From assembly GCA_963845755.1 (NCBI GenBank), contig CAWJTV010000012.1, positions 1 through 64,000 of the forward strand: a stretch of 64,000 nucleotides of DNA, read 5' to 3'. This stretch comes from an uncultured Planctomycetota bacterium. GTDB taxonomy: Bacteria; Planctomycetota; Planctomycetia; Isosphaerales; Isosphaeraceae. Under the pieces are notes generated by a model, which saw nothing but the letters and a program-made list of their open reading frames with translations, searched no databases and was not told the origin of the DNA. The translations under genes were made by a program, and so were the position numbers. Each line of letters begins with the position of its first letter. Position 1 is the first letter of the stretch. Of this stretch, positions 7,761 to 54,850 are shown one piece after another.

Positions 7761-9085
7761 CTACAAGGGAATGCACACTCTTTTTACAGTAGCAAAGAGG
7801 GGCAAGTAATTCTCCAGCATGGCGTTGAGTTGGTCGGCGCCGTAGCGCGCGAGTCGGTCCACCGCGGCTTGCAACACCCACAGCCCGGCCAACAGGCCGC
7901 TGGTCGTGATCGCTCGGTGCCGCTTGGTCTGCCGACCGCTCAGTTGCATCAGCAATCGCTGGAATTCCTCCGACTCGGCGTCGTGCCGGCGCTCCAGTGC
8001 CCAGATCGAGGCGCCCGCCCCGAAGGCGATCAGCAGCTTGATCAGGAGCCGATGGCCGTCACGCTGCAGCCAGCCCTCCAACTGCCAGCCAGCACTCTTG
8101 AGCAGCTTGTGCATGCTCTCGATCCGCCAGCGGAAGTAGTACCACCGCGCGATCGTCGCCGCGTCGGCCAGGCCGCCGGCACGTTGGTCAGCAACAGCCA
8201 GCGTGCCAAGACACGTCCTTTCAGGTCGCGGACCTCGGTGACGACCAGCCGCAACGGCAACGGCGGCCCGGGGACCTCGACCTTCTTCTTGCCCAGGTTC
8301 CGTCGGCCGGGCCGGTGCAGGACGACCTCGGCCTCGGCGACGTACAGCCGCGCCACCCGGCCGTGATACCGCGCCGCCCCGGCATCCTGGAAGGCGTCTT
8401 CTTGGCGGAATCCGTCGGCGATTGCGACCAACGAGGTCTCTTTCCCCTGGCAGAGGACCTTGCGGTCATCGCCGCGGACCAAGGCCAGGTGGCCGTCGGC
8501 AGCCCACTGCCGCCAATGGTTGACCGAATCGGCCTCGCGGTCGATCACGTGGACCAGGGTCGTGCCCAAGCCCAGATCGTGGACATATTGCATGTCGCCG
8601 CGGACCTGATCGATGTGGCAGATGTCGGCAACCGGGTCGCCGTCGCGGGTGCTGAGCACACCATCGGCCGTGGTCAACGAGACCAGGGCCGGGGCGATCG
8701 GGGCGCCGTCGTCGCCGCGCACGATCAGGACGGAGGCGAGGTCGTAGCCGACGTCATCGGCATGGGTCAGCGTGGCACGGTCGGTCTTGGAGGGATGGTC
8801 GGCGAAGCTGAGCGTCGACCAGTCGTGGATGGCCAGCAGGACGCCGGGGCGGTCGGCCACCTCTTGGCGGATCGTCTGATGCATCGGCTCAATCAAAGCC
8901 GACTCCACGACCAGTGGGTGGATGCAGAACCGCCACAACTTTTGGGCAAAGGAGGCCGGCTTGAGCCCCGCGACCGTGGCCCCCGGGCCCGGCGCGGTGC
9001 TGGAGCCGGTCTTCCCGAACCCCTTGACGAGTATGGCGTAAGCGTTTTGGAGGTCAATCCCTAGCCGAGTTGGTAAATATTTCAT
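7761..9085 (-). CDS. IS4-family DDE transposase (frameshift near 8170)
   Basis: LAIHDWSTLSF, VHVIDREAD, WLLLTNV, then in the second frame W-Y-Y-F-R-W-R-I-E (YREK-like) followed by HKLLKSAGWQLE. The stop codon lies inside the left IR. Confidence 0.85.
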
Positions 9086-9092
9086 ACCAGCC

Positions 9093-9101
9093 ATTATAAC
9101 A
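9093..9101 (-). promoter_or_regulatory. Extended -10 promoter (TGtTATAAT) of the IS4 transposase
   Basis: Minus strand reads TGTTATAAT, then 7 nt, then the ATG at 9085. No SD sequence. Confidence 0.5.
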
Positions 9102-9275
9102 CAAAAACAATCTCTTGTAGAGACCAATGCCCTCGGGAGAGGGCTGGGGTGAGGGGGCGGGATGCGGCAACACCGTCGCGCAAATCGAATGACTCGCCGC
9201 GAGATATCATGGCGGGCACGAGAGCCTTCGCCGCCAAATACGAGCGGGTATTGAGGAGGCTTACGGTGGCACCGT

Positions 9276-9315
9276 CCCCTCACCCCAGCCCTCTCCCTCG
9301 GGAGAGGGAGCCAGT
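9276..9315. repeat. REP-like palindrome (intact copy); an inverted copy is split by the IS4
   Basis: CCCCTCACCCCAGCCCTCTCCCTCGGGAGAGGGAGCCAGT. Its reverse complement matches 7731-7751 joined to 9130-9156. Confidence 0.85.
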
Positions 9316-9449
9316 TTTTCTACGCATCGACGGCCCCTGTTCTGAGGCGGGGACTCTGGCCTCCCTGGCCGTCATCAGAAAAACCGCTCCCTGTGAGCCT
9401 CTAACACCCCTTCGCAAGGCGGGGAAATATTTCGCGCCATTGAGGTTTG

Positions 9450-10835: not shown

Positions 10836-12213
10836 TCAGGCGAGCTGGGATTCAGGCGAGGCGACGACCAATGCCACGGCCCGGCGCAGCGATTCGGGAG
10901 TTTGGTCCGAGATCATCGGTGCCAGCCGCCGGCGCTCCTGGAGCGAAAGGGTCGAGCCGTGCAAGAGCGTGGATGCCGCATCCGCGATCGCGTCGAACGA
11001 TGTCGTCCGACCTTGTGCCCTGGCCATCGCCGATGCATCGATCGGGGCCGGCAAGCCGATCGATCGGCCATCGACGAGCGCCGACGCAAACCTGGTCCGC
11101 GCGATGATCGACTTGCCGGTCAACCATTCGCGGCCCTCGGGCCAGCCGCCGACATTGGGTGGGTTGAAGAGGTCCTGGCCGAGCTGACGGATCCAGCCGG
11201 CCAATGAGAGCGTGCTCGGGGGCGGATGCGAGCGGCAAGAGCGTTCGGCAGGCGCCGATCACGAACTCAGCCGGTCCGAGCACTCGCGTTCGGATATTGG
11301 CTGACGCGAAGAATGCCCGCGAGCGGAGGATCGTTTCGACACCCCAGCCGATGTCGAGGTGATGGTCGCGCAGTCCGACGGCCAGTGCGGCGACGGCCGG
11401 AGCGTCGACAGCCTGCTCACCCATGAAGAGGCCGCACAACCGCGATGCCAGGCGATGGGCTGTCGCAGGCTGGTCGGCAAGCATCGCGACGAGCTGCGAG
11501 CCGCTCCAGCGGCCTGTCTTGCCGAGGATCGTCTTCTCGCCGTCGTCGTGCTCCGCGGGCGACTCGCGCAGCTCGCCATCCTCGAAGGTCCAGCCGGTCA
11601 GTGCCCGTGCCGCCGCTTTCACGTCGGACTCGGTGTAGTGGCCGATGCCGAGCGTGAAGAGCTCCATGAGCTCTCGGGCGAGGTTCTCGTTGGGACGGCC
11701 TTTGCGGTTGGCGGTCGCATCAAGGTAAAGGAGCAGCGCGGGCTCGCGAATCGCCGCGGCCAATAGCTCGCCGAACCGCGCGCGGGCGAGGCGGCGATGC
11801 GTCTCGTTCTGCCGGCGCATGGCGCGCAGGTCGTGGACCTTTTCGTTGCTGGTCGCGAAGTGGTTGTGCCAGAGGAGCGTCAGTCGTTCACCCAACGGGT
11901 CGGGTGAGAACAACAGCCGATAGACCCACCACGCCTGGAGGCGATGGAGATCACCCGATTGGACGGCCGCATCGGCGATCAGACTCGAGATGTGATCAAA
12001 GTCGGCGGGAACGCCGCTCGCTCGGGACCGTCCTGCCAGGATGCGGTCGATCGCCGCTTCGGGGCCGTCCGCAAGGTCGCGCTCGAGCTCGAGCCACGTG
12101 GCGCCGAAGCCGGCGCGGCGATGCAGATGAACCACCCTGCGTAGGTCCCAGGGGGCGCTCGCCGTGGCGGAATAGGGCGCCAAGGGGTCGGATCGATGCA
12201 CTGCATTTCTCAT
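10836..12213 (-). CDS. DUF1800 domain protein, copy 2 (frameshift near 11225)
   Basis: HLHRRAGFG; ERLTLLWHNHFATS; PNENLARELMELFTLG; LGQDLFNPPNVGGW; SPESQLA. Confidence 0.85.
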
Positions 12214-12221
12214 CGAGTGAC

Positions 12222-12722
12222 TCGGGAACGGCGCCGGCGCCGATGTAGAGCGACGCCGTACCGCTCGTCCCGGGAACGGCTCGGGCATCGAGGCCGCGCC
12301 CGATCCAGCCGGGCCCGGTGTGATCGACCGGGTCGAACCGGGCCGTATGCCAGATGGCCATGCTTCGGAAATGGGAGCGGTCGGGATTGGGATAGCCGAC
12401 ACCAGGCACGATGGCGAGGCGCCCGGCCTCGAGCATCCGGCCAGCACCTTGCATCGCGGGATGAAGGCCGATCCCCTCGGTGACGGAGATGAGCCGTTTC
12501 ACCGGCAGCGCCAGAGCTTGGCGATTTCGGGCGTATCCTTCATCCTGGAAGGGGACGACCGTGTTGATCCCGTCATTGCCGCCGTCGAGCTGGATCACGA
12601 CGAGCACCCGGCACGTCGTTCTCTGGCGCGGCGGCACGGGCCGACCGCGCGAGGAAGCCGGGAACGCTCGGGGCGAGCGAAATCAAAGGAAGGGTGCGCA
12701 GGACATCGCGTCGCGTGATCAT
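12222..12722 (-). pseudogene. Truncated DUF1501 paralog (N-terminal part only)
   Basis: Near copy of 10310-10807 that breaks off after YIGAGAVP and joins the leader of DUF1800 copy 2. Confidence 0.85.
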
Positions 12723-12753
12723 TATACTCTCCGGGTTCGGTGACTGGCGTTCA

Positions 12754-12821
12754 GAGGCCATTTCAAAAAGGGGACAGACACCTCGAAGACTCGGAGCCAG
12801 TCCTCTTTTTGAAATGGCCAG
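12754..12821. mobile_element. 68-bp MITE/REP hairpin flanked by a TCA duplication
   Basis: GGCCATTTCAAAAAGGGGAC (12756-12775) / GTCCTCTTTTTGAAATGGCC (12800-12819), 19/20 inverted match. TCA at 12751-12753 and 12822-12824. Absent from the paralogous site at 10836. Confidence 0.85.
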
Positions 12822-14196
12822 TCAGGCGAGCTGGGACTCGGGCGAGGCGACGACGAGTGCCACGGCCCGCGCAGCGATTCGGGAGTTCGGTTCGGGATCA
12901 TCGTCGCCAGCCGCCGGCGCTCCTGGAGCGAAAGGGTCGAGCCGTGCAGGAGCATGGAGGCCGCATCCGCGATCGCGTCGAACGATGTCGTCCGACCTTG
13001 TGCCCTGGCCATCGACAATGCATCGATCGGGTCCGGCAATCCGATCGATCGGCCCTCGGCCAGCGCCGACGCAAACCGGGTCCGCGTGATGATCGACCTG
13101 GCGGTCAACCATTCGCGGCCCTCGGGCCAGCCGCCGACATTGGGCGGGTTGAAGAGGTCCTGGCCGAGCTGACGGATCCAGCCGGCCAATGAGAGCGTGC
13201 TCGGGGGCGGGGCGAGCGGCAGGAGCGTTCGGCAGGCGCTGATTACGAACTCGGTCGGTCCGAGCACTCGCGTTCGGATATTGGCTGACGCGAAGAATGC
13301 CTGCGAACGGAGAATCGTTTCGACACCCCAGCCGATGTCGAGGTGATGGTCTCGCAGTCCGACAGCGAGCGCGGCGACGGCCGGGGCGTCGACAGCCTGC
13401 TCGCCCATGAAGAGGCCGCACAACCGTGATGCCAGGCGTTGGGCGGTCGCAGGCTGGTCGGCGAGCATCGCCACGAGCTGCGGGCCGCTCCAGCGGCCTG
13501 TCTTGCCGAGGATCGTCTTCTCGCCGTCGTCGCGTTCCGCGGGCGACTCGCGCAGCTCGCCATCCTCGAAAGTCCAGCCAGTCAGTGCCCGTGCGGCCTC
13601 TTTCACGTCAAGCTCGGTGTAGTGGCCGATGCCGAGCGTGAAGAGCTCCATCAGCTCTCGGGCGAGGTTTTCGTTGGGGCGGCCCTTGCGGTTGGCGGTC
13701 GCATCCAGGTAAACGAGCAGCGCGGGCTCGCGAATCGCCGCGGCCAATAGCTCGCCGAACCGCGCCGGCCGAGGCGGCGATGCGTTTCGTTCTGCCGGCG
13801 CATCACGCGCAGGTCCTGGACCTTCTCGTTGCTGGTCGCGAAGTGGTTGTGCCAGAGGAGCGTCAGCCGTTCACCCAGCGGGTCGGGCGAGAACAACAGC
13901 CGATAGACCCACCACGCCTGAAGGCGATCGAGACCACCGGATTGGACGGCGTCATCGGCGATCAGACCTGAGATGTGATCAAAGTCGTCGGGAACGCCGC
14001 TCGCTCGGGACCGTCCTGTCAGGATGCGGTCGATCGCCGCTTGGGGGCCGTCCGCAAGGTCGCGCTCGAGCTCGAGCCACGTGGCGCCGAAGCCGGCGCG
14101 GCGATGCAGGTGCACCACCCTGCGTAGGTCCCACGGGTCGCTCGCCGTGGCGGAGTAGGGCGCCCAGGGGTCGGATCGATGCGCCGCGTTCCTCAT
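12822..14196 (-). CDS. DUF1800 domain protein, copy 1 (frameshifts near 13765 and 12870)
   Basis: Same motifs as copy 2. ATGA overlap with the upstream gene and a GGAGG SD. Confidence 0.85.
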
Positions 14197-41588: not shown

Positions 41589-41859
41589 CGGACCCTCCCC
41601 CTTCGATCACGTTCGGGACGGATCTCCGAACTCTCGATCGCCAGGACACCCGACAACCTCGATGATCGTCGAGTATTTGAGGAAAGTTTAACATTCGGTT
41701 TGTCGTCTGGACAAGGTGGTGATGGCGCACGTTCTGCGCTCCGGCTCAATGGCGCCTGTCTGAGATCGTCTCGCGTCTGACCTATCGAAGGCTTACGCTG
41801 GATGATCGAAGTGGAAGGACGATGATCGGATCCCGGACTTCGAAGTGAGAGGAGACTCC

Positions 41860-43016
41860 TTGGCGGAGATCAATTTGAAGCAGCTTTCGAAGGGTTTTGG
41901 AGGAGGAATCCCGGTCCTCGAAGCCATCGATTTGAATATCCGTTCCGGCGAGCTGCTGGTCGTGTTGGGGCCATCCGGGTCGGGGAAAACGACTTTGTTG
42001 CGACTCATCGCCGGTCTGGAGTCACCGAGCTCGGGCCGGGTTTGGATCGACGGTCGTGATGCAACCTCGGTCCGACCGGCTCGTCGAGACGTGGCCATGG
42101 TTTTCCAGCAGCCTGCCCTCTACCCCCATTTGACGGTCTTCGACAACCTCGCGTTCGGTCTGCGCGCGCCGGGGCATTCCCCGGAATCAGATTCGGTCCA
42201 AGGTGAATACGATCGCCGGACTGCTGGGACTGGACTCGCTCCTGGCCCGTCGACCAGGCACACTCTCTGGAGGCGAACGCCAGCGCGTGGCGATCGGCCG
42301 CTCGATCGTGCGACAACCGCGCGTGCTCCTCTTCGACGAGCCGTTCTCGAGCCTCGACCTGCCACTGCGCGTCGGCACTGCGCGAGGAAGTGGTTGAGCT
42401 TCACCGCCAGTTCGGGACGACGTGGATCCTCGTGACGCACGATCAGGCCGAAGCGCTCCTCTTGGGTGATCGAGTCGCCGTCCTCGATCGCGGCCGACTG
42501 CTCCAGTGCGGCCCACCCCGAGCGATCTACCAACAACCAACGAACCGGTTTGTCGCCACTTTCGTCGGTTCACCACCGATGAACATCCTGGCCTGCGAGG
42601 TCGAACGCGACGGCGACCGCCTCCAAATCCACGTCATCGCGGCGAAGCAAGGGTTGAGCTGGCCCATGGCCGGCAGTGGGCCGCCCGCCGTATGGCTGGA
42701 GGGGATCGACCGCATCGAACTCGGACTCCGGCCCGAAGCGATCAGCGTACGGACGTATGGCCCATCCTCGGAAGCCCCACCCTCGTCGCCAACGTTCCCG
42801 GCGCAGGTCCTCCGGCTGGAGTTTAACGGACCCGACCTCCTCGCCACCCTGGCCCTCGGTCCTCATCTCCTGGTGGCCCGTGTGCCCGCCAGCCAGCCCA
42901 TCTCTGAGCGGGAAGTTGTCCAGGTCGTCCTCGACCTCGACCGGGCCGTCTGGTTCGACCCCGCGACGGGCCGAGCATTGAATCTCGGTGGACAGGCGGC
43001 GACTAGTTCAACGTGA
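41860..43016 (+). CDS. MalK/MsiK-like sugar ABC transporter ATPase (frameshifted)
   Basis: Walker [40 protein letters not shown]-like C-terminus. Confidence 0.88.
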
Positions 43017-43505
43017 TCAGTCCGCCGCGGAAGTCCAGCATCAGGATCCGCTCGCGGAGGAAGGCGAGACCGAGAACGCCGTCAATGTTGGCGTCGGAAC
43101 GATTGCGAGAATCAAGAGTGGAGATCCGTCCGGCTCCAACCATGAATGATCGGTGCAGCAAGAGCCCAAGATCACGCGAGACTCGGAGACAAACGCAAGA
43201 GCCGTCCTGCGTCCGGGAGGCATTGGAATCGTCCAGTCCGGGGTATCAGCTCTCGAGTTCCGGCGGGAGTAACCCCCGAATCGCGTGTGGAAAAGACAAC
43301 GTCTGGCGACCTCTTCCTTCCGTTCCTCTGCCGATTCATACGCAATCGCCAATTCATGAGCTAATCTTGGATCGAGAGATCGAGCGGGTCAGGGGTCCGG
43401 ACCGGAAAAACCCCTTGGCCATGGCCAAGGCGAGATCGGACCCGCTCGTCGAGCCGACTTGCAACCCGATGGAATTCTTCGACTACGAGGAGACCTACCG
43501 AAGCG

Positions 43506-43886
43506 ATGAGCCAGCACATCCTCGTCATCGAAGATGATCCAATGAATCTCGATATGATCACTCAACGTCTAGAGTTGAGGGGCTATTGCGTCGCGGGAGC
43601 CGTGGACGGCCCGGAGGGGATCGAGCTGGCCGTCCTGGAGACGCCCGACCTGATCCTGATGGACGTCAGCCTACCGGGAATGGACGGCTGGGAGGTCACG
43701 CGTCGCCTCAAGGCCGAGGCAGCCACCCGGCACATCCCGGTCGTCGCGCTGACGGCGCACGCCATGGCGAGCGATCGGGACAGGGCCGTACAGGCCGGTT
43801 GCGACGAATACGTCACCAAGCCCGTAGATTTCCAGCGGCTGCTTGCGAAGATGGAAACGCTCCTCGGACGAAAGGCGATGGCATGA
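43506..43886 (+). CDS. Single-domain response regulator (DivK/CheY-like)
   Basis: ILVIEDD...LILMDVSLPGMDG...ALTAHA...YVTKP. Phospho-Asp and Lys intact. Confidence 0.95.
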   Translation: MSQHILVIEDDPMNLDMITQRLELRGYCVAGAVDGPEGIELAVLETPDLILMDVSLPGMDGWEVTRRLKAEAATRHIPVVALTAHAMASDRDRAVQAGCDEYVTKPVDFQRLLAKMETLLGRKAMA

Positions 43887-46064
43887 CGACTCGCGCGGCC
43901 TCTCTCCTCGTGGTGGACGACGAAGAGCTCAACCGGGACATGCTCTCTCAGCGTCTGGAGTTGAATGGGTATACGGTGACGGCCGTCGAAAGCGGACGGC
44001 AAGCACTCGCGTTCCTCAATCGACATTCCTTCGATGTCGTCCTTCTGGACGTGATGATGCCCGAGATGAATGGCCTGGACGTCCTGCGGATGGTCCGCCG
44101 AACTCAATCCGCCGCGGAGCTGCCGATCATCATGGTGACGGCCCGTGACCAGAGCGAGGATGTCGTCGAGGCATTCGAGCTGGGGGCCAACGACTATGTG
44201 ACCAAGCCGATCGACCTTCCCGTCGTGCTGGCCCGGATCGCCACTCAGGTCTCCCACAAGCGGGCGCATGCAGCACTGCGCGAGAGCGAGGCACGGTACG
44301 CCCTGGCCGCCCGCGGTACGAACAATGGCCTGTGGGACTGGGACCTCCGAACCGATGAGGTCTTTTTCTCGCCGCGCTGGAAGGCGATGCTCGGGTACGA
44401 GGAAGATGAGCTCGGCACCAGTCCGGACGAGTGGATCCGGCGAATCCATCCGGTAGATACTCCTCGGGTCCGTGCCGCTCTCGACGCCCACCGACAGGGA
44501 TGCACACCTCACTTCGAGAGCGAACACCGGTTGCTGCACAAGGATCAGACCTATCGTTGGATGCTTGCACGCGGGTTGGCGGTCCGGGATTGCGACGGCT
44601 GTGGGCAACGCATGGCCGGCTCGCTGACCGACATCACGGAGGGCAAGGTGGTCGATGCGCTCACGGGCCTACCGAATCGGATCCTTCTCATGGATCGCCT
44701 CGAACGCGCGCTGCGAGCGCTCCTGGCGGAACCCGGACTATCAGTTCGCCGTCCTGTTTCTGGACCTCGATCGATTCAAATTGGTCAACGACAGCCTCGG
44801 CCACCTCATCGGAGACCAACTCCTGACCGCGTTCGCGCGGCGCCTCCAGGGAACTCTCCACGCCCTCAACTCTTCCATCGGATGGTCGGTCGAGCCAACC
44901 ATCGCGCGCCTCGGGGGGGATGAATTCACGATCCTGCTGGAAGACATCAAGGACCCGGCCAACGCGATCCGCGTGGGAGAACGGATCCAGAACGACCTCG
45001 CAACCCCCTTCAACTTGAGCGGACATCAAGTGTTCACCACCGCCAGCGTCGGTATCACCCTGAGTGGTCCCGAGTACGAACGGCCGGAAGATCTGCTGCG
45101 CGACGCGGACACGGCGATGTACGGCGCCAAGGCGACAGGCAAGGCCCGCCATGAGGTGTTCGACGCGAAGATGCGTGCCCGGGCGATGGCTCGGCTGGAG
45201 TTGGAGACCGAGTTGCGCTGGGCCCTCGAGCGCCGCGAGTTCCGGCTTTACTACCAACCGATCGTGACACTGGAGTCCGAGCAACTGATCGGGTTCGAAG
45301 CCCTCGTGCGCTGGCAGCACCCCCGGCGGGGCCTCCTGCTCCCGGAAGAATTCATCCCGGCCGCAGAGGAAAACGGGCTGATTCTATCGATCGGCTGGTG
45401 GGTACTCGACGAAGCCTGCTTCCAACTCTCCCATTGGAAGCACCGCTACTCCAACGAACAGCCCTTGATAATATGCATCAATCTCTCGGGCAAACAGTTT
45501 TCCCAGCCCAACCTCGTCGAACAGATCGAGAGCCGGCTGAATGCGAACGGCGTCGACGCGCGGGCCCTCAAGGTGGAGATCACCGAAAGCGCGATCATGA
45601 GCGATCCGGAATCGGCGGCAGAGATCCTCTCTCGACTCCGCGGCATGGGCGTGCAGATCGGGATCGATGACTTCGGCACCGGCTACTCGTCCTTGAGCTA
45701 TCTACGTCACTTCCCCATCGACACCCTCAAGATCGACCGAGCCTTCATCCAGCGGATGCATGCCGACACCAAGGACTGGGAGATCATCCAGACGATCGTC
45801 CGGCTGGCTCACAATCTGGCCATGGACGTGGTCGCCGAGGGTGTCGAAACGCACGATCAGCGACACCAACTCCAGTCTCTCGGCTGCGAGCATGGCCAGG
45901 GCTTTTATTTCTCACAGGCTGTGGCCGGATCAGACGCCGAGGAACTGCTTTCTCGATACTGGCAAAGGCCCGAAACGGGAAGGGAACCGCGGGCCGACGA
46001 TGCGACCTCGCCCAGCCTGCCCGTCGCCTCGGCGGTCAACGCGGCCTGTTCGATCGGGCAGTAA
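43883..46064 (+). CDS. REC-PAS-GGDEF-EAL diguanylate cyclase/phosphodiesterase (frameshift near 44720)
   Basis: ATGA overlap with the RR. REC VVLLDVMMP; PAS GLWDWD..IHPVD; DALTGLPNR; ARLGGDEF; GFEALVRW; IDDFGTGYSS. Confidence 0.92.
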
Positions 46065-46146
46065 CACCTCTCGCCTTAGAGAGCCTTGACTCGACCGCTC
46101 CTCGCCCGTTCGCGAGAAAGAAAGCGGCATTTCCCCTGCCAGTCAC

Positions 46147-46177
46147 TTTACTCCCCAGGCCCCATGTTTTATATAAC
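46147..46177 (+). promoter_or_regulatory. Possible sigma-70 promoter upstream of hhyS
   Basis: TTTACT-17 nt-TATATA (overlapping TATAAC) in an AT-rich patch of GC-rich DNA. Confidence 0.3.
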
Positions 46178-46288
46178 TAGCTAGGTCAGTCAACTCGAGG
46201 CTGTTGTCGGTGGGCATTCGGAGCAATCGGGTCGGCTGGGCTCCGGACTCACTCCATCCCCTGGCTCCCATTGCAGAAAGGAACCGCC

Positions 46289-47323
46289 ATGGTCGAGCCG
46301 GCGATTCCGTATGGGCGGAGGACCCAGCCGTCTCCAGCCATCGCCGAGATGCACATCCTGTGGATCACCGCCGGACTTGGCTGTGATGGGGATTCGATCG
46401 CGATCACGGCCGCCACGCAACCCAGCCTTGAAGACCTGGTACTGGGTGCGATTCCGGGCCTCCCTACGATCCATTTACACCACCCGGTCCTGGCGTACGA
46501 GAACGGGGACGCGTTCCTGGAGTCGTGGTTCCGCGCAGCGGATGGCCGGCTCGACCCATTCCTGTTGATCCTGGAAGGTTCGATCCCCAACGAGCGGGAT
46601 CAGGAGGAGGGATACTGGGCCGCCGTCGGCGTGGACCGGGCCACCGGCCAACCGATCACCACTTGCGAATGGATCGACCGGCTCGCCCCGAAGGCGTGGG
46701 GCGTGGTCGCGGCCGGGACATGCGCGGCCTATGGCGGCATCCACGCTATCGAAGGGAATCCGACCGGCTGCATGGGCCTGCCGGACTACCTGGGTTGGAA
46801 CTGGCGCTCCACGGCGGGACTGCCGATTGTCTGCGTGCCGGGCTGCCCGGTCCAACCCGACAACTTCATGGAGGTGCTGCTGTATCTTCTCAATCATGCG
46901 GCGGGTCGGGCGCCAGCGATACCCCTTGACGAGGCATTACGGCCCGCCTGGTTGTTCGGGCAAACCCTCCACGAGGGTTGCGATCGAGCCGGGTATTACG
47001 AGCAGGGCGACTTCGCCAAGGATTATGGGACGCGGGAGTGCATTGTGAAGCTGGGATGCTGGGGACCCGTGGTCCAATGCAACGTCGGAAAGCGAGGCTG
47101 GATGGCCGGCATTGGCGGCTGTCCCAATGTCGGTGGCATCTGCGTCGGTTGCACCATGCCCGGTTTCCCCGACAAGTTCATGCCGTTCCTGGATATGCCG
47201 CCGGGTGCCCAGTTGTCCACGACGGCGGTCGCCATGTATGGAAAAGCCATCCGCGCCCTGCGGCAGTTCACCCGCGCGTCGATGAATCGGGAGCCCGAAT
47301 GGCGTGCGCGGGCCGCGAATTGA
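46289..47323 (+). CDS. hhyS: Group 1h-type [NiFe]-hydrogenase small subunit
   Basis: HILWITAGLGCDGDS (CxxD proximal cluster); GTCAAYGG; PGCP; HEGCDR; KLGCWGP..CNVG..CPNVGGICVGCTMPGFPD. No canonical Tat signal. AAAGGA SD. Confidence 0.9.
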   Translation: MVEPAIPYGRRTQPSPAIAEMHILWITAGLGCDGDSIAITAATQPSLEDLVLGAIPGLPTIHLHHPVLAYENGDAFLESWFRAADGRLDPFLLILEGSIPNERDQEEGYWAAVGVDRATGQPITTCEWIDRLAPKAWGVVAAGTCAAYGGIHAIEGNPTGCMGLPDYLGWNWRSTAGLPIVCVPGCPVQPDNFMEVLLYLLNHAAGRAPAIPLDEALRPAWLFGQTLHEGCDRAGYYEQGDFAKDYGTRECIVKLGCWGPVVQCNVGKRGWMAGIGGCPNVGGICVGCTMPGFPDKFMPFLDMPPGAQLSTTAVAMYGKAIRALRQFTRASMNREPEWRARAAN

Positions 47324-47495
47324 CGAGGTTATCGAAGTCCTTTCCACGAATCACCGGGGAGGACCGTCGGACCGGAGCGACCAGGAAGGAATCAATTTGA
47401 AGATTCCAAATTCAATAATGAACATTTTCTTTAATATTTGAATTTTTGACCTTGTTTATGGATGGACTACTCTGATCCGCCGAGGGGCCCGCGAC

Positions 47496-49295
47496 ATGAC
47501 AGCAGGGGCAAATAATCCATCGTCCGGGCAGTCCGAACCACCTCATCTGGTCGAGATGTCGTGGGACCCGATCACCCGGATCGTCGGCAGCCTCGGCATC
47601 CACACCAAGATCGACTTTGCCAACCGGCGCGTGGCGGAGTGCTTCAGCACCTCGTCGATCTTCCGGGGTTACAGCGTCTTCATGAAGGGGAAGGACCCGC
47701 GCGACGCTCACTTCATCACCAGCCGGATCTGCGGCATCTGCGGCGACAACCACGCCACCTGCGCCTGCTACGCGCAGAACATGGCCTTCGGGATCAGGCC
47801 GCCGGCGCTGGCCGAGTGGATCATCAACCTCGGCGAAGCTGCCGAGTATATGTTCGACCACAACCTCTTCCAGGATAACCTGGTGGGCGTCGATTTCTGC
47901 GAGCAGATGGTCAAGGAGACGAATCCCGGCGTCCTGGAACGCGCCGAGCGGACCGAGTCACCCCACGCCGCCTTGCACGGCTACCGCACGATCGCCGACA
48001 TCATGCGGTCGCTCAACCCTTTCCGCGGTGACTTCTACATCGAGGCGCTCCAGATGAGCCGCCTGACCCGGGAGATGTTCTGCCTGATGGAGGGCCGGCA
48101 TGTCCACCCGTCAACCCTCTATCCGGGCGGCGTCGGGACGGTAGCCAGCGTGCAGCTCTTCAGCGATTATCAGGTGCGATTGTTAAAGTATGTGGAGTTC
48201 ATGAAAAAGGTCGTCCCGCTGCACGATGACCTGTTCGACTTCTTCTACGACGCACTGCCCGGTTATGAGGAGGTCGGGCGGCGCCGGGTGCTCCTGGGTT
48301 GTTTCGGGTCCTTCAACGATCCGGAGTCATGCGACTACTCCTACCAGCGGATGACTCAGTGGGGCCGGGCCATGACGGTCACGCCTGGGATCGTTATTGA
48401 CGGCGAATTGATCAGCACGGACCTGGTCGAGATGAACCTGGGTCTTCGAGTCTTGCTCGGAAGTTCTTATTACGACGACTGGCAGGATGCGGAGAGATTC
48501 GTAAAGGAGGACCCGCTGGGCCATCCGATCGATCAGAGGCACCCCTGGAATCAGACCACGATCGCGAAACGGCAGAAGCGCGACTTTCAGGGGAAGTACA
48601 CGTGGGTCATGTCGCCCCGATGGTATGACCCGCGTACCCAGGAGTATCGGGCGCTGGACACCGGCGGGGGCCCGCTGGCGCGCCTCTGGGTCACGGCCCT
48701 GGCCGGCCTCGTGGACATCGGTTACATCAAGGCCACCGGTCGGAGCGTCAAGATCTACCTTCCCAGGACTGCCTCGTTGCCGGAGGTCGAGTTCGAGTGG
48801 GCGATCCCGCGATGGAGTAACACACTGGAGCGCGACCGGGCGCGGACCTACTTCCAGGCGTATGCCGCCGCGGCGGCCCTGTACTTCGTCGAGCGAGCGC
48901 TCGAGGAGGTGTATGCCGGACGGACACGGACCTGGACCGAATTCAAGGTGCCCTTGGAGGCAATCGGTTGCGGCTTCCATGAGGCCGTGCGCGGTATGCT
49001 CTCGCACCACGTGGTGATTCGCGACGGGAAGATCGGCAATTACCATCCCTATCCGCCCACCTGCTGGAACGCCAGCCCGCGCGACATCTACGGCACGCCG
49101 GGGCCCTACGAGGACGCCGTGCAGAATACTCCGATTTTCGAAGAGAACGGCCCCGACCGCTTCAAAGGAATCGACATCATGCGCACGGTCCGGAGCTTTG
49201 ATCCCTGTCTGCCCTGCGGGGTCCACATGTACCTGGGAGATGGCCGGACGGTCCAGGTGCGCCACGCGCCGATGTTCGGCGTCGCAGAGGGGTGA
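47496..49295 (+). CDS. hhyL: Group 1h-type [NiFe]-hydrogenase large subunit
   Basis: L1 TSRICGICGDNH and L2 SFDPCLPCGVH are the group 1h (former group 5) signatures. C-terminal extension MYLGDG... follows L2. Confidence 0.93.
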   Translation: MTAGANNPSSGQSEPPHLVEMSWDPITRIVGSLGIHTKIDFANRRVAECFSTSSIFRGYSVFMKGKDPRDAHFITSRICGICGDNHATCACYAQNMAFGIRPPALAEWIINLGEAAEYMFDHNLFQDNLVGVDFCEQMVKETNPGVLERAERTESPHAALHGYRTIADIMRSLNPFRGDFYIEALQMSRLTREMFCLMEGRHVHPSTLYPGGVGTVASVQLFSDYQVRLLKYVEFMKKVVPLHDDLFDFFYDALPGYEEVGRRRVLLGCFGSFNDPESCDYSYQRMTQWGRAMTVTPGIVIDGELISTDLVEMNLGLRVLLGSSYYDDWQDAERFVKEDPLGHPIDQRHPWNQTTIAKRQKRDFQGKYTWVMSPRWYDPRTQEYRALDTGGGPLARLWVTALAGLVDIGYIKATGRSVKIYLPRTASLPEVEFEWAIPRWSNTLERDRARTYFQAYAAAAALYFVERALEEVYAGRTRTWTEFKVPLEAIGCGFHEAVRGMLSHHVVIRDGKIGNYHPYPPTCWNASPRDIYGTPGPYEDAVQNTPIFEENGPDRFKGIDIMRTVRSFDPCLPCGVHMYLGDGRTVQVRHAPMFGVAEG

Positions 49296-49301
49296 GCGGC
49301 C

Positions 49302-50901
49302 ATGTCGGGAGCTCCGGCCGCCAACGATGAAGAGCTCGAGAACCCGGATTTACGATTACGGACGTTTCGACGCGTGGGCCTGCCCATGATCGCCAATCCA
49401 GAACCTGCTCAACTCGCAACGGCCCCCGAGAGAGGGCTTAGCGATCACTCTGCGGAGGGTGGCCTGACGCTCGAGGAGGCCGAGGAGATCCTCCGGAACC
49501 TGGCTGACTCGGAATCCCGGCCTGAGGCGGCGCAGCTTCGACGGCCCGTTCCGATCGTCCCGAAAGAGGTCGGGAACGCAGTCGGTCCCGAGCCGTTTCA
49601 GCGGGCGGAAGCCCGGTATCGCACTCTGGTCGAGCAGCTTCCGGCAGTCACATTCATGGCGGCCCTCGAAGGGGGAGAAAACGAACTTTACGTCAGCCCT
49701 CAGATCGAGTCGCTTCTGGGCTTCTCCCAGAAGGAATGGCTGGAGGACCCGATCCTCTGGTACCGACAGCTCCACCCGGACGACCGGGTCCGCTGGCACA
49801 ACGAATTCGCGCAGACGTGCGCGATGGGAAAGCATTTTCGCTCAGAGTACCGGTTCCGGGCCCGCAACGGTCGTGTCGTCTGGGTTCACGGCGAGGCAAC
49901 GGTGGTTCGCGATGAGCATGGCAATCCTCTCTTCCTCCAGGGCATCGCTTTCGATATCACGGCACGCAAGCAAGCAGAAGCGACGCTCCGCAGGAACCAC
50001 GAGGAGCTGGAGCGTCGCGTGAGCCAGCGAACGGCCGAGCTCGCCACGGCCAACGACGTCTTGCAAGGGGAGGTCTGCGAGCGGCAGCGAGTCGAGGGAG
50101 AGCTGCGCCGGGTCAATGCCGATCTCGTCGTGGCCCACGAGCGGGCGCTGGAGGCCAGCCAGGTGAAGAGTACGTTCCTGGCCAACATGAGTCACGAGTT
50201 ACGAACACCCCTGAACGCCATCATCGGCTACAGCGAGCTCCTCCAGGAGCTGGCCGCCAAGAACGTCCCGAAGGACCCGACGCCCGGCCTGGAGAAGATC
50301 AACCGAGCCGGCAAGCATCTGCTCACGATTATCAACGATATCCTCGACCTCTCCAAGATCGAGGCAGGCAAGATGCAGCTCTTGCCGGAATGCTTCCTCG
50401 TTTCCGACCTGGTCCGAGAGATGGAGACGACCGTCCAACCGCTCCTGGCCAAGAACGAAAATGCACTGGAAATCCGGTACGATGAGCACCTCGGTACGAT
50501 GTTCACCGACGTGACCCGCGTCCGACAATGCCTCCTCAACCTCCTATCAAACGCGTGCAAGTTCACCCAGAGAGGAACCATCCGCATGGACGTAGCGCGC
50601 GAGACCGAGTCGGATGGCGACTGGGTGCGCTTCCGGATCCAGGACAGTGGCATAGGCATGTCACCCGACCAGGTCGGCCGGCTGTTCGATGCCTTCACCC
50701 AGGCCGATGCCTCGACGACGCGCAAATATGGCGGGACCGGACTGGGTCTGGCGATCACCCGGAAACTCTGCCGAATGTTGGGTGGCGACGTCTCCGTCGA
50801 GAGTGAGCTGGAATCGGGGCTCGGCATTCTTGATCCGGATCCCCGCATCCATCGAGGTAGGTCGGGTCGAGCCTGCCAGTCTGGCGGCGAGAGGCGATTG
50901 A
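49302..50901 (+). CDS. Cytoplasmic PAS-domain sensor histidine kinase (frameshift near 50815; true end 50901)
   Basis: PAS/PAC YVSPQIESLLGF..LHPDD..LQGIAFDIT; H-box FLANMSHELRTPL; NLLSNACKFT; DSGIGM; GGTGLGL; then GSAFLIRIP in ORF 50689-50901. Starts 6 nt after the hhyL stop. No TM segment. Confidence 0.9.
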
Positions 50902-51107
50902 CAGGCTCTCACCAAACGGGCGTCGTCGATTCCGGATCCGGATCGTCTCATCCTCCGGAGAGCGGCCGGATTCGGCTTCGATGGTCTCGGCTCCAACCAC
51001 CTCGACCCAGACGGGCTGATGCGATACACTCATCTCTATCACCGAGAGTCCGACCACCGTGACATGGCATCGGAATACCTAACCCGGCCTTCGGCCGCAA
51101 CCCCATC

Positions 51108-51197
51108 GGGATTCCCGATTCGAGATTCCGGATTCCCGAAGGGGAATGATCCGGGAATCCGGAATCGCGAATCCGGAATCGCGAATTCGGAATCCCC
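51108..51197. repeat. Inverted heptamer arrays (STRR-like hairpin)
   Basis: 4x GATTCNN (51110-51137) facing 6x NNGAATY (51153-51194). Confidence 0.8.
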
Positions 51198-51243
51198 AGA
51201 GGCGCGCACGGCGCAGGGATCGTACCGAGGAAGACTCTAACGT

Positions 51244-52368
51244 ATGCGCGACGTCGTGCGACAAGTCGTCCGGGTGCTGGAAATGGATCGCGAATTGATC
51301 CTCTGCCAGGTCGTGGAGACCCGAGGATCCACGCCTCAGAAGGGGGGCGCGGTGATGGTCGTCGATCCGACCGGCGGGCAGATCGGAACCCTCGGCGGCG
51401 GCTGCGTCGAGAACGAGGTGAAACAGAAGGCGATGCGGCAACTCGGCGGCACCGGCGCGGCCTTGCATTCGTTCCTCCTCGACCATGACTACGGCTGGGC
51501 GGATGGGCTGATCTGCGGTGGCAAAATGGTGATCGTCAGCCAGCCGTTGCGCGGTGCGGAACCGCTGGCCTACTTCCTAGCACTCGAGCGCGTCCTGGAA
51601 GCCGGTGAGGGCTTCACGGAAGCCGTGGTCATCCATCCCGAATCGGACGCCAGTCCGGCCATGGGGAGCCGATTTCTGTTCGATGGAGCGGGACGATTAC
51701 GGGCGAGTTGTCCGTCGCTCTCGGTACCCGAGCGGCTGGCATCGCGGGTCTCGCCAGTCGTTGAGCGGCTAAAACCCCGCGTCGAAGGGGGAGTGGCCTA
51801 CCTTCCGAGCTGGCCGCGGATCCGGCTGGTGATCGTCGGTGCGGGACACGTGGGCCAGGCCGTTGCCGGTCTGGCGGCCCAGGCGGATTTCGACGTCTGG
51901 GTCGTCAACGATCGCCGACAGTACGCCAATGCCGAGAGGTTTCCGTCGGCCCAGCGGATTCTCGTGGGACCGATCGAGGAGGTCCTCGGTTCGTTAGAGG
52001 CGACTCCCCACACATATGCCCTCATCGTCACCCGGGGACATGGACACGACCAGGAGGCGCTCTATCACCTGGCTCCAACGTCTGCATCGTACGTGGGGCT
52101 GATTGGCAGCCGTCGGAAAATCCGCCTGATCTTCGAGGGTCTTCGAGACCAGGGGATTAGTGAGTTGACCCTGAGGCGAGTCGCGGCCCCAGTCGGCCTG
52201 GATATCGGCTCCCAGTCGGTCATGGAGATCGCCATCAGCATCGTGGCTGAGCTGATCGCACGACGCAACCTGGGTCCGAAAGGGCTGTCCTCGCGTCCTC
52301 ACGGCGAGCCTCTCGGGGGCGCGACCGAAGGCGCACATTCGTGTGCCGGCGTCGCGCAGGCATCATGA
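51244..52368 (+). CDS. xdhC: XdhC/CoxI family Mo-cofactor maturation protein
   Basis: GSTPQKGGAVM..GTLGGGCVE; GLICGG; GAGHVG; VTRGHGHD; YVGLIGSRRK; APVGLDIG. Confidence 0.9.
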   Translation: MRDVVRQVVRVLEMDRELILCQVVETRGSTPQKGGAVMVVDPTGGQIGTLGGGCVENEVKQKAMRQLGGTGAALHSFLLDHDYGWADGLICGGKMVIVSQPLRGAEPLAYFLALERVLEAGEGFTEAVVIHPESDASPAMGSRFLFDGAGRLRASCPSLSVPERLASRVSPVVERLKPRVEGGVAYLPSWPRIRLVIVGAGHVGQAVAGLAAQADFDVWVVNDRRQYANAERFPSAQRILVGPIEEVLGSLEATPHTYALIVTRGHGHDQEALYHLAPTSASYVGLIGSRRKIRLIFEGLRDQGISELTLRRVAAPVGLDIGSQSVMEIAISIVAELIARRNLGPKGLSSRPHGEPLGGATEGAHSCAGVAQAS

Positions 52369-53342
52369 TCGCCGCGATCGTTCCCGCCGCTGGCAAGAGC
52401 ACCCGGATGGGGCGGCCGAAACTGCTGATGTCGCTTGACGGGGCGACGCTGCTCCATCGCGTGGTGACCGCGCTGCGCCAAGGGGGGGTGGAGCGCGTGG
52501 TCGTGGTGGTTCCTCCAGCCGATTCGCCCGAGGGCCCCCTGATCGCCGATGAGGCCCGGCACGCGGGTGCCGATGTCGTGAACCCCGTCACCCGACCCGC
52601 GGACATGCGGATGTCTGTCGAACTGGGACTGGCGCGGCTCAGGTCCGATGTGACCCCAAAGGTCGTGCTGCTGGCGCCCGCCGATGCACCGGGCATCTCG
52701 GCCGATCTCGTCGCTCGCCTGGTCGAGACCGCGCTGGGACGGCCCGGCTCGATCGTCGTCCCTTTCCACGAAGGCCGACGCGGTCATCCACTGGTACTAC
52801 CCTGGAACCTTGCTGAGCAGATCCCGGCTTTACCGGCAGGCGCGGGCGTGAATGCGCTCGTCGCTCGCAGCGCGAACTCGATTGTCGCGTTGAACTCGGC
52901 CAATCCCGACGTCCTCGTGGATCTCGACACACCCGAGGACTGGGATAAATGGAGGTGCCGTTCACTCGATAACGATCCCATGAACCAGGATGCGGGCTCG
53001 AATTCCTTTGACCGGTCTCCACTCCCGACTACCAAGATGCAGGTAAGAGTTCGTCTGTTCGCGATCGCGAAGGAGCGCGCCGGTCGCGCTGAGATCCTGA
53101 TTGAACTGCTCGCTCCGGCAACGATCGCGGACCTTCGAACCGCGCTCTGCGCTCATTTCATCGAGCTCGCCCCGTTGTGGTCGAGCGCGCTCATCGCGAT
53201 TGACGAGGAGTATGCCGACGATGAAGCAACCATCTCACCGGATTCTCAGATCGCCGTGATTCCCCCGGTGAGCGGCGGCGCCAGGACGATCTCGACCGCC
53301 CGCCACGATCACTCGAATGAGAGTTTCACCATCGATGATTGA
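52365..53342 (+). CDS. MocA-like nucleotidyltransferase fused to a MoaD/ThiS sulfur carrier
   Basis: PAAGKSTRMGRPKLL; GRRGHP; DLDTPED; then in frame MQVRVRLFA...IAVIPPVSGG plus 20 extra residues. Confidence 0.8.
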   Translation: MIAAIVPAAGKSTRMGRPKLLMSLDGATLLHRVVTALRQGGVERVVVVVPPADSPEGPLIADEARHAGADVVNPVTRPADMRMSVELGLARLRSDVTPKVVLLAPADAPGISADLVARLVETALGRPGSIVVPFHEGRRGHPLVLPWNLAEQIPALPAGAGVNALVARSANSIVALNSANPDVLVDLDTPEDWDKWRCRSLDNDPMNQDAGSNSFDRSPLPTTKMQVRVRLFAIAKERAGRAEILIELLAPATIADLRTALCAHFIELAPLWSSALIAIDEEYADDEATISPDSQIAVIPPVSGGARTISTARHDHSNESFTIDD

Positions 53343-53757
53343 GATCACGAAAACGACAATCGACCATGCGGCCGTCACGGAGCAAGTCCGATCGAACCGC
53401 GCCGGCGCGGTCTGCACGTTCCTGGGGACCGTCCGCGAGTTGACGGGTGATCGTCTCACAGTCTCGCTATCCTATGAAGCCTACCCCGAGATGGCCCTGA
53501 AGAAGTTGGCGGAGCTGGAAGCGGAAGCGCGCCGGCGCTGGCCGATCATCGAGGTGGCGATGGTCCACCGGGTCGGACACCTGGACCTGGGCGACGTCAG
53601 CGTGGTCGTTGCGGTGAGCTGTCCGCACCGGCAGGATGCATTCGAGGCGTGTCGATGGCTGATCGATACCCTGAAAGAGGTCGTACCGATCTGGAAAAAA
53701 GAGAACTGGGCCGACGGGACCGAGGAATGGGTCCACCCCGGGTTGGGGACGAGTTGA
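53335..53757 (+). CDS. moaE: Molybdopterin synthase catalytic subunit
   Basis: GAVCTFLGTVR; LSYEAYPEMA; HRVGHL; PHRQDAF; LKEVVPIWKKE. Confidence 0.93.
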   Translation: MIEITKTTIDHAAVTEQVRSNRAGAVCTFLGTVRELTGDRLTVSLSYEAYPEMALKKLAELEAEARRRWPIIEVAMVHRVGHLDLGDVSVVVAVSCPHRQDAFEACRWLIDTLKEVVPIWKKENWADGTEEWVHPGLGTS

Positions 53758-53849
53758 ACCCCATCGGACCGGCACCGAAATCGCTCCGCTCGTCAATTGT
53801 TCGCATAGAATGACCACGAAGACCTCGCAGGCCCCGAGCGACAGTATCC

Positions 53850-54850
53850 ATGACTGATAGAATCAATCGACTCGTGGACTCATTCGGACGTCCCCACAAC
53901 AACCTGCGGATCAGCGTGACGGACCGGTGCAACATCCGGTGCGTCTACTGCATGCCGGAGCAGGTCGAGTTCCTGCCTCGCACACAACTGCTGACCTTCG
54001 AGGAGATCGAACGATTCGTACGGATCGCCGTGACCCTGGGCATTGACAAGGTTCGGCTGACTGGCGGGGAGCCCCTGGTCCGGCGGCACCTGCCGATCCT
54101 CATCGAAAAGCTGGCCGCGATCCCGGGTATCAAGGACATCGGGCTGACCACCAACGGGATCCTGCTGGCACCGGTCGCCCGGACTTTGTGGGACGCCGGT
54201 CTGAGACGGATCAATGTGAGCCTGGACACGATGAACGCCGACAAATTCCAGGAGTTGACACGACGCACCGGTTTCGAGCAGGTCATTGAGGGGATCCTGG
54301 CGGCCAAGGAGACCGGCTTCGATCCGGTCAAGGTCAACGCCATAGCCATGCGCGGAGTTACCGAGGACGACGTCGTCCCCCTGGCTCAATTCTCGCGCAA
54401 GCAGGGTCTGGAGCTGCGTTTCATCGAATACATGCCCTTGGATGGCGGGCACCTGTGGGAGCGAGAAAAAGTCCTGTTCGCCGCGGAGATCCTCGAGTTA
54501 CTCGAGCGTGGAATCGGCCCGCTTCGACCCGTCGTCGATCAGGATCCCCGCGCACGGCGCTGGATTACGACTGGGTCGATGGGGGAGGACGGATCGGCTT
54601 TATCGCCTCGGTGAGCCGGCCATTCTGCCTGAGCTGCAACCGGATCCGGCTGACCTCCGACGGCAAGCTTCGGAATTGCCTGTTCGCGCTGGATGAGACG
54701 GACATTCGCGGATTGCTCCGCGGCGATGCCAGCGAGGCGGAGATTGTTCAGGCGATTCGCGACAGCGTCGCCGCGAAATGGGAAGGTCACGAGATCAATA
54801 CCGCCCGCTTCATCCAGCCCGAGCGGATCATGCACTCGATCGGCGGATAA
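53850..54850 (+). CDS. moaA: GTP 3',8-cyclase (frameshift near 54555)
   Basis: LRISVTDRCNIRCVYCM; RLTGGEP; FCLSCNRIRLTSDGKLRNCLF; C-terminal IGG. Confidence 0.93.

Follow-up and report, generated by a model that had tools for sequence, protein, structure and literature searches.

A kinase-linked group 1h [NiFe]-hydrogenase with a putative signaling role in an uncultured planctomycete

Introduction

Why should a hydrogenase be encoded between an enzyme of cyclic di-GMP (c-di-GMP) turnover and a histidine kinase? The question is raised by a 64,000-nucleotide stretch of DNA from an uncultured soil Planctomycetota bacterium (GenBank assembly GCA_963845755.1, contig CAWJTV010000012.1, positions 1 to 64,000), referred to here as the window. 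Between 43506 and 50901, five genes running in one direction on the plus strand encode a single-domain response regulator (RR), a REC-PAS-GGDEF-EAL protein, the small and large subunits of a [NiFe]-hydrogenase (hhyS and hhyL, here hhyS2 and hhyL2) and a soluble PAS kinase. A first-pass annotation, made from the letters alone, had interpreted this cluster as an H2 sensor built on a group 1h scaffold. The comparisons described below confirm the group 1h assignment, place both subunits in distinct lineages that recur beside one family of PAS kinases, and lead us to lean modestly toward a signaling version of the group 1h hydrogenase, in which H2 or redox state would act through the kinase on c-di-GMP.

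Results

The window hydrogenase belongs to group 1h

Comparison of the sequences with solved structures confirms the earlier group 1h call, R. eutropha 5AA5 being the best match for both subunits. HhyL2 aligns over residues 10–577 with residues 12–579 of chain 5AA5_C (1116.5 bits), the next best match being the E. coli Hyd-2 large subunit at 155, and HhyS2 matches 5AA5_A at 596.2 bits, followed by a [NiFeSe] small subunit at 150 bits. Against the group 2a Huc chains HhyL2 scores 112 bits, compared with 1116 for the 1h enzyme, and no solved group 2b chain is found among the best 60 of its 62 structure matches. The nickel-iron motifs RICGICGDNH and DPCLPCGVH, corresponding to the L1 and L2 signatures that hold the four Ni-Fe cysteines, are present in HhyL2. 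HhyS2 carries the GCDGD motif and keeps all 10 Cys columns that are invariant in canonical copies, and its translated N terminus, judged by eye, has no hydrophobic export-signal region. HhyL2 comprises 599 residues, 22 of which follow the C-terminal CxxH; the mature 5AA5 chain ends at the position of HhyL2 residue 577. In a Pfam scan of the window, no hyp, hupD or hhaABC (NifU, DUF5947, DUF6084) gene was found beside the pair.

A second, canonical 1h operon, the presence of which the first-pass annotation had proposed checking, lies on contig C20 of the same genome (14.27 Mb in 49 contigs, 87.9% complete). It is ordered hypF-hypD-SIS-hypE-hhyS-hhyL-NifU-DUF5947-DUF6084, followed by hupD and hypB, and its subunits are 73% (small) and 80–82% (large) identical to those of the window. 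Kinase-linked and canonical pairs coexist in seven genomes, including that of the window. A spare pair away from the accessory genes, with a canonical pair elsewhere, looks like a division of labor at the level of gene content.

The kinase linkage recurs within the family and across phyla

Our cross-phylum sample consists of the best 80 of 591 HhyL relatives, which by record title comprise 73 loci from Acidobacteriota, 5 from Burkholderiaceae, 1–2 from Chloroflexia and 1 from Gemmataceae. An open reading frame (ORF) matching the window kinase is present in 53 of the 80; identity is 76% at the Gemmataceae locus, L056, and 40–60% at the other 52, all acidobacterial. The cross-phylum match is confined to the N-terminal helix and PAS domain, about residues 55–230. 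An extra small subunit directly precedes the kinase in 48 loci; 47 of these are acidobacterial, with no large subunit gene between small subunit and kinase, so the partner conserved across phyla is the small subunit with one PAS domain, not the large subunit. At L014 and L048, for instance, the order is an extra HhyS-like gene, a PAS-PAS-HisKA_3 kinase, a REC-GerE regulator and then the canonical hhyS-hhyL-hha genes. L056, from a metagenome-assembled genome named as Gemmataceae, carries between 3789 and 11737 an RR, a diguanylate cyclase, HhyS and the kinase, together with an extra HhyL on the opposite strand. The two systems are adjacent at this locus, because the inverted HhyL heads a canonical hypF-hypD-hypE-hhyS-hhyL-hha cluster.

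Within the window's own family, we surveyed 120 other genomes for the PAS region at E ≤ 1e-25. It was found in 14, at 54–86% identity, and these are 14 of the 45 genomes with HhyL and none of the 75 without; we treat this as a pattern and attach no statistic to it, because kin are not independent. Layouts, read from 20 kb around each match, fall into three kinds. Type A, HhyS-HhyL-kinase as in the window, occurs in G446, G434, G462, G440, G452, G429 and G433, with the RR and GGDEF-EAL genes upstream in four of the seven (G446, G440, G452 and G429). The linkage is therefore not unique to this contig, a point that the first-pass annotation had left to a neighborhood survey. Type B, in which the PAS kinase closes a full hhy/hha/hupD cluster, is found in G490, G480 and G461 and, in other families, in G261 and G298. 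In the third layout (L134–L138), a PAS-only ORF separates hypE from hhyS in clusters that are canonical in other respects, on contig C6 of G429 and in G436, G430, G409 and G444; here the match ends near kinase residue 258–271 and the kinase core is unmatched. Orthologs of the window RR, 63–79% identical, lie 5′ of the same cluster at L123, L126, L127, L128 and L056.

In G452, which is 99% complete, the kinase-linked cluster contains the sole PF00374 hydrogenase; hypF, hypD, hypE, hupD and hypB are on the other contig, and DUF5947 is absent. This cluster (L127, contig C2) also has a NifU-like gene of HhaA type between HhyL and the kinase, at 8790–9377, and a GAF domain inserted between the PAS and HisKA domains of the kinase. 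At L128 (contig C4 of G429, 12098–13153, minus strand), the kinase-linked HhyS reads in frame into HhyL with no stop, which represents either a natural subunit fusion or an assembly error.

Both subunits form kinase-linked lineages

In a tree of 127 HhyS rows, the window copy and 48 kinase-adjacent copies form one clade with a Shimodaira-Hasegawa approximate likelihood-ratio (SH-aLRT) support of 98, inside which none of the 78 canonical copies falls; the nearest row to the window is the kinase-linked copy of L056. A second HhyS tree of 78 rows, for which Gemmataceae loci were added and every second acidobacterial row was dropped, gives a support of 99 for a clade comprising the acidobacterial orphans, six type A copies, the window copy and four type B copies. 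Four rows from loci with PAS-only ORFs and the C20 copy of the window genome lie outside it. For HhyL, a careful search over 39 rows groups the window copy with eight type A and two type B copies (ultrafast bootstrap 96, SH-aLRT 92), separate from 15 canonical Gemmataceae copies that include the second copies of G446, G434, G433 and G462. The kinase-linked subclade that the first-pass annotation had suggested looking for in HhyL thus exists, and HhyS has one as well.

One marker of the small-subunit lineage is the loss of a C-terminal tail. The motif L(T/S)(T/S)GY, a criterion derived from this sample rather than from a published definition, ends 81 of 89 canonical HhyS copies and none of the 57 kinase-linked ones, the window copy included, whose C terminus is ...NREPEWRARAAN. 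Of the eight tail-less copies labeled canonical, three are type B and at least two others look frameshifted. The clade also has specific residues that adjoin ligands of the Fe-S clusters: T/S-I-A at positions 42–44, directly after GC38DGD41, where canonical copies have S-V-S; Cys188 in place of Asn, four residues before Cys192; and Gln269 and Gly273, which flank Cys270.

Clade-specific changes in HhyL number only seven (T218S, D312E, I317L, I394L, A443T, L472V and P523C) and are mostly conservative. P523C, within PPT(C/P)WNASPRD, is the most notable, lying six residues before an arginine that we take to be the active-site canopy residue. Among 391 columns with a conservation of at least 97% in the 83 other rows, window HhyL departs at 20, the highest count of any row; none of these departures falls in the nickel-iron motifs. 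Given so few and such conservative clade-specific changes, we rejected a description of HhyL2 as a sensor-like degenerate or "dead" paralog.

The PAS domain as a candidate portable input module

The PAS alignment contains 15 invariant columns over 68 rows from two phyla, and a short conserved helix, AE..L..LA, precedes the domain by about 45 residues. The same PAS is joined to HisKA in the window, to GAF-HisKA in G452 and to HisKA_3 with a NarL-type RR in Acidobacteriota, as expected if it is a portable module that serves as input and goes with the hydrogenase, since transmitters and outputs differ while the PAS stays the same. A complex prediction for HhyS2 with three 4Fe-4S clusters and the kinase N terminus and PAS returned a score of 0.00, which is no answer and is counted neither way.

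Two cluster genes are frameshifted in this assembly

The first-pass annotation's description of five genes stands as regards their order and motifs; it had passed over two single-nucleotide frameshifts. The REC-PAS-GGDEF-EAL gene carries one extra base between PAS and GGDEF, so that it is read in two frames (43883–44923 and 44655–46064). The kinase has one extra base in a GGGG run; uncorrected, its ORF ends at 51062, and after the shift of frame it ends in ...GSAFLIRIPAS...ARGD* at 50901, the endpoint annotated earlier. Both sites are one-nucleotide insertions relative to G446, of the same genus, in which both genes are in frame, and in G452 (two contigs) each is one uninterrupted ORF, of 725 amino acids for the GGDEF-EAL gene and 696 for the kinase. 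Public contigs from two soil DNA runs (13% and 6% of words) span neither site.

Other genes are interrupted as well. In the window, an ABC-transporter ATPase (41845–43016) is split into an ABC_tran part and, in another frame, a MalK OB/TOBE part, and MoaA (53850–54850), which matches Radical_SAM, has its Mob_synth_C part spread over two frames. The canonical hhyL on contig C20 is also frameshifted, and related long assemblies have frameshifts at other places. The pattern points to indel errors across the whole assembly, and such errors are the likelier cause of both frameshifts in the cluster, because unrelated genes and the C20 hhyL are affected too, and the orthologs in G446 and G452 are in frame.

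Organization of the locus

The features of the locus are collected in Table 1. Gene order, shared direction and positions agree with the first-pass annotation for all five genes, as do the 6-nucleotide spacing between hhyL2 and the kinase, the cytoplasmic nature of the kinase and the intact signaling motifs, which were read from translations and Pfam matches. The start of the REC-PAS-GGDEF-EAL gene overlaps the RR stop by 4 nucleotides. Both receivers keep the phospho-Asp (LILMDVSLPG and VVLLDVMMPE), and the GGDEF, EAL and DDFGTG motifs are intact; no RxxD I-site was seen in the translation of the GGDEF-EAL protein, at the position where we take that motif to lie. The kinase H-box is SHELRTPLN, and the protein has neither a hydrophobic N terminus nor a receiver domain. 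For hhyS2, the ATG at 46289, preceded 8 nucleotides upstream by AAAGGA, is a more likely start than the alternative TTG at 46271.

Table 1. Features of the kinase-linked hydrogenase locus (window coordinates)
Feature	Position	Strand	Evidence
Single-domain response regulator, 126 aa	43506..43886	+	Pfam Response_reg, E 7.6e-29
REC-PAS_3-GGDEF-EAL protein	43883..46064	+	Pfam matches in both frames; 1-nt insertion near 44713
hhyS2, tail-less group 1h small subunit	46289..47323	+	5AA5_A, 596 bits; kinase-linked clade
hhyL2, group 1h large subunit	47496..49295	+	5AA5_C, 1116 bits; kinase-linked planctomycete clade
PAS_3-HisKA-HATPase kinase, soluble, no receiver	49302..50901	+	Pfam; 1-nt insertion near 50815
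Inverted repeat, 33-nt arms of GGAATCN heptads	51106..51184	+	Fold and heptad pattern scan

A scan of 42900–51400 for promoters and terminators gave chance-level counts (2 against 1.7 expected and 6 against 4.9 expected, respectively). The gaps of 206–224 nucleotides before hhyS2 and 172 nucleotides before hhyL2 may leave room for promoters. Between the kinase stop and xdhC lies an inverted repeat with an RNA fold of −54.7 kcal/mol (z −2.9). All seven window matches to the GGAATCN heptad pattern, for which 1.26 would be expected, fall within it, and it is possibly an operon-end hairpin or terminator, or else a protein-binding array.

Upstream of the cluster are DUF1501 and PSD1 genes and the ABC ATPase, and downstream are molybdenum-cofactor genes. 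The latter follow directly, at 51244–54850, and encode an XdhC-like protein, a MobA-like nucleoside triphosphate transferase fused to a ThiS/MoaD domain, MoaE and MoaA; in the relatives' loci no tie was seen between such genes and the hydrogenase cluster. A paralog of the REC-PAS-GGDEF-EAL protein, 44–52% identical, is encoded elsewhere in the same genome (G000, contig C31, about 300331–302451).

Discussion

A candidate route from H2 to c-di-GMP

We favor, with modest confidence, a model in which this cluster is a signaling version of the group 1h hydrogenase. HhyL2 would oxidize H2 and load the three Fe-S clusters of HhyS2, and the N-terminal helix and PAS domain of the kinase would read the redox or conformational state of HhyS2, which tail loss may have uncoupled from its usual partner. 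The kinase would then set the phosphorylation of the two upstream receivers, one in the single-domain RR and one in the REC-PAS-GGDEF-EAL enzyme, such that H2 availability, or the redox state reported by the hydrogenase, would be converted into a c-di-GMP level and hence a lifestyle decision. Maturation factors (hyp, hupD) would be supplied in trans from the canonical C20 cluster. The contact between HhyS2 and the PAS domain, H2 as the signal and phosphotransfer to both receivers are steps that we infer; a change in c-di-GMP is the likely output, because the receivers and outputs encoded in the window have no DNA-binding domain.

Several observations weigh against this model. The same outputs that lack a DNA-binding domain are connected by nothing to a known response. 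HhyL2 is barely altered, its departures being mostly conservative, and retains its C-terminal extension, so it lacks what we take to be the hallmarks of a group 2b sensor. Neither a conserved Cys nor a cofactor signature is found in the 68-row PAS alignment, and among solved structures, searched by sequence and by profile, only generic PAS_3 domains and the non-heme first PAS of FixL are matched; a heme or flavin relay in this domain was dropped as a candidate on these grounds. Most of the sampled loci are acidobacterial and, being related by descent, do not count as independent cases, and in the present assembly two cluster genes carry frameshifts. In G490 (100% complete), G480 (96%) and G298 (95%), moreover, the kinase-linked type of HhyS belongs to the sole 1h enzyme, which has a full hyp/hha cluster. 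The kinase-linked type need not be a pure sensor, because it serves as the only 1h enzyme in these three relatives, each at least 95% complete; judging from gene content, the lineage can probably supply the working enzyme and at the same time be read by the kinase. The H2-sensor interpretation of the first-pass annotation thus gains from the group 1h assignment, the second operon, the recurrence of the linkage and the subclades, and is weakened by the type B sole enzymes as far as a "pure" sensor is concerned. A narrower version, in which the complete S2-L2 pair in Gemmataceae is a dedicated sensor of trace H2 whose output would be c-di-GMP rather than hydrogenase transcription, is held only tentatively, and we would sooner doubt it than rely on it.

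The strongest competitor is a second catalytic isoenzyme, mainly energy-yielding, whose kinase merely tracks electron load, redox or O2 to tune metabolism. We consider it unlikely, although it draws on the same three genomes just described, where NifU, DUF5947 and hupD adjoin the kinase-linked enzyme (DUF6084 is also adjacent in G490 and G480, with no match in G298), on G452, whose only enzyme is kinase-linked with a NifU-like gene inside the cluster, and on the retention of every metal ligand in a conservative large subunit. On the other hand, in the seven genomes with both kinds of pair it is the canonical copy that has the tail and the hha genes, no accessory gene adjoins the window pair, and a catalytic role leaves unexplained why a dedicated large subunit is missing for most of the 48 kinase-adjacent copies.

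That the frameshifts are real, and the cluster a decaying duplicate pseudogenized in the window genome, is improbable. The insertions relative to G446 and the count of HhyL departures, the highest of all rows, are what decay would produce; yet frameshifts also affect the ABC ATPase, MoaA and the C20 hhyL, related assemblies are frameshifted elsewhere, hhyS2 and hhyL2 are open with every ligand, and the G452 orthologs are intact. Less probable still is a chance association, in which an ordinary two-component and c-di-GMP cassette happens to lie beside a duplicated hydrogenase with no functional tie. Planctomycete genomes are rich in kinases and receivers, and the window kinase and RR have 58 and 49 tblastn matches, respectively, in this one; but copies next to the kinase occur in two phyla and, for each subunit, belong to a clade of their own, and the PAS family is restricted to hydrogenase-bearing genomes in the family survey.

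We are aware of no characterized regulator or sensor for any group 1h enzyme, and of no account of how the enzymes that consume atmospheric H2 are controlled. Consumption of atmospheric H2 is described as the main sink of the H2 cycle (PMC6883350, PMC8027828). With a distinct lineage of both subunits that travels with one PAS kinase family across phyla, the locus offers a concrete candidate sensor of H2 or redox state, built on a scaffold that tolerates O2 and has high affinity, and may connect trace gas with lifestyle. If the pair is indeed dedicated to sensing, H2 sensing would have arisen a third time, independently, among [NiFe]-hydrogenases, and H2 from the atmosphere or soil would bear on decisions about attachment, dormancy or the cell cycle; the sensor would also persist in the nearly complete G452 without a respiratory 1h enzyme. 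For surveys that use hhyL or hhyS to estimate H2 uptake, three markers may part signaling from respiratory copies: in HhyS the loss of the tail and Cys188, and in HhyL the change P523C.

Comparison with known hydrogenase systems

In HydDB, group 2b is labeled "Histidine kinase-linked, H2 sensing" and group 2c comprises putative diguanylate-cyclase-linked hydrogenases (PMC5037454). The window system resembles group 2b (HoxBC-HoxJ-HoxA of Cupriavidus necator, HupUV-HupT-HupR) in having a two-subunit hydrogenase with no export signal, a soluble PAS kinase and a second, energy-yielding hydrogenase elsewhere in the genome. It differs in that both subunits are of group 1h and HhyL2 keeps a C-terminal extension, whereas group 2b large subunits are not known to carry the extension that an endopeptidase removes, and in that DNA-binding domains are absent from the window receivers, HoxA being an NtrC-type activator. 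As in group 2c, the hydrogenase is encoded beside a GGDEF protein; in contrast to group 2c, the enzyme is of group 1h, and a histidine kinase and receivers stand between it and the GGDEF-EAL enzyme. Membership in either group was rejected, because both subunits are group 1h and the large-subunit extension is kept. The convergence with group 2b proposed by the first-pass annotation would be a fair description of the logic of the system.

Canonical 1h enzymes (R. eutropha HofKG, 5AA5, and the actinobacterial and acidobacterial Hhy) are close in sequence and share all metal ligands with the window pair. In contrast to these, the window locus has no hha, hyp or hupD gene, the HhyS tail is absent and both subunits fall into the kinase-linked subclades.

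Another close counterpart is the extra hhyS of Acidobacteriota, which belongs to the same small-subunit clade and shares the tail loss and, at 40–60% identity, the PAS and N-terminal helix. In Acidobacteriota the module comes without its own large subunit, combines a HisKA_3 kinase with a DNA-binding REC-GerE regulator and is placed immediately upstream of the canonical operon. In the window, HhyL2 is encoded between S2 and the kinase, the kinase is of HisKA type, the output is putatively c-di-GMP and the locus is separate. This extra gene has been published as an "additional copy of hhyS ca. 3,600 bp upstream" of hhySL in KBS 83, E. aggregans and P. methylaliphatogenes, and it is expressed in KBS 83 (PMC8027828); the passages of Eichorst et al. 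(2018) on these genes list a single large subunit for each strain and are silent on the kinase (PMC5900883). Our literature searches turned up no 1h enzyme described as linked to a kinase or to c-di-GMP, whether in Planctomycetes or outside them. Within these searches, the first-pass annotation's remark that no characterized example was known holds for the planctomycete form putatively wired to c-di-GMP, and needs qualifying by the published acidobacterial gene. What is new here is the planctomycete lineage with its own large-subunit clade, its putative c-di-GMP wiring, and the tail and residue markers that, on this set of sequences, distinguish the kinase-linked copies from the canonical ones.

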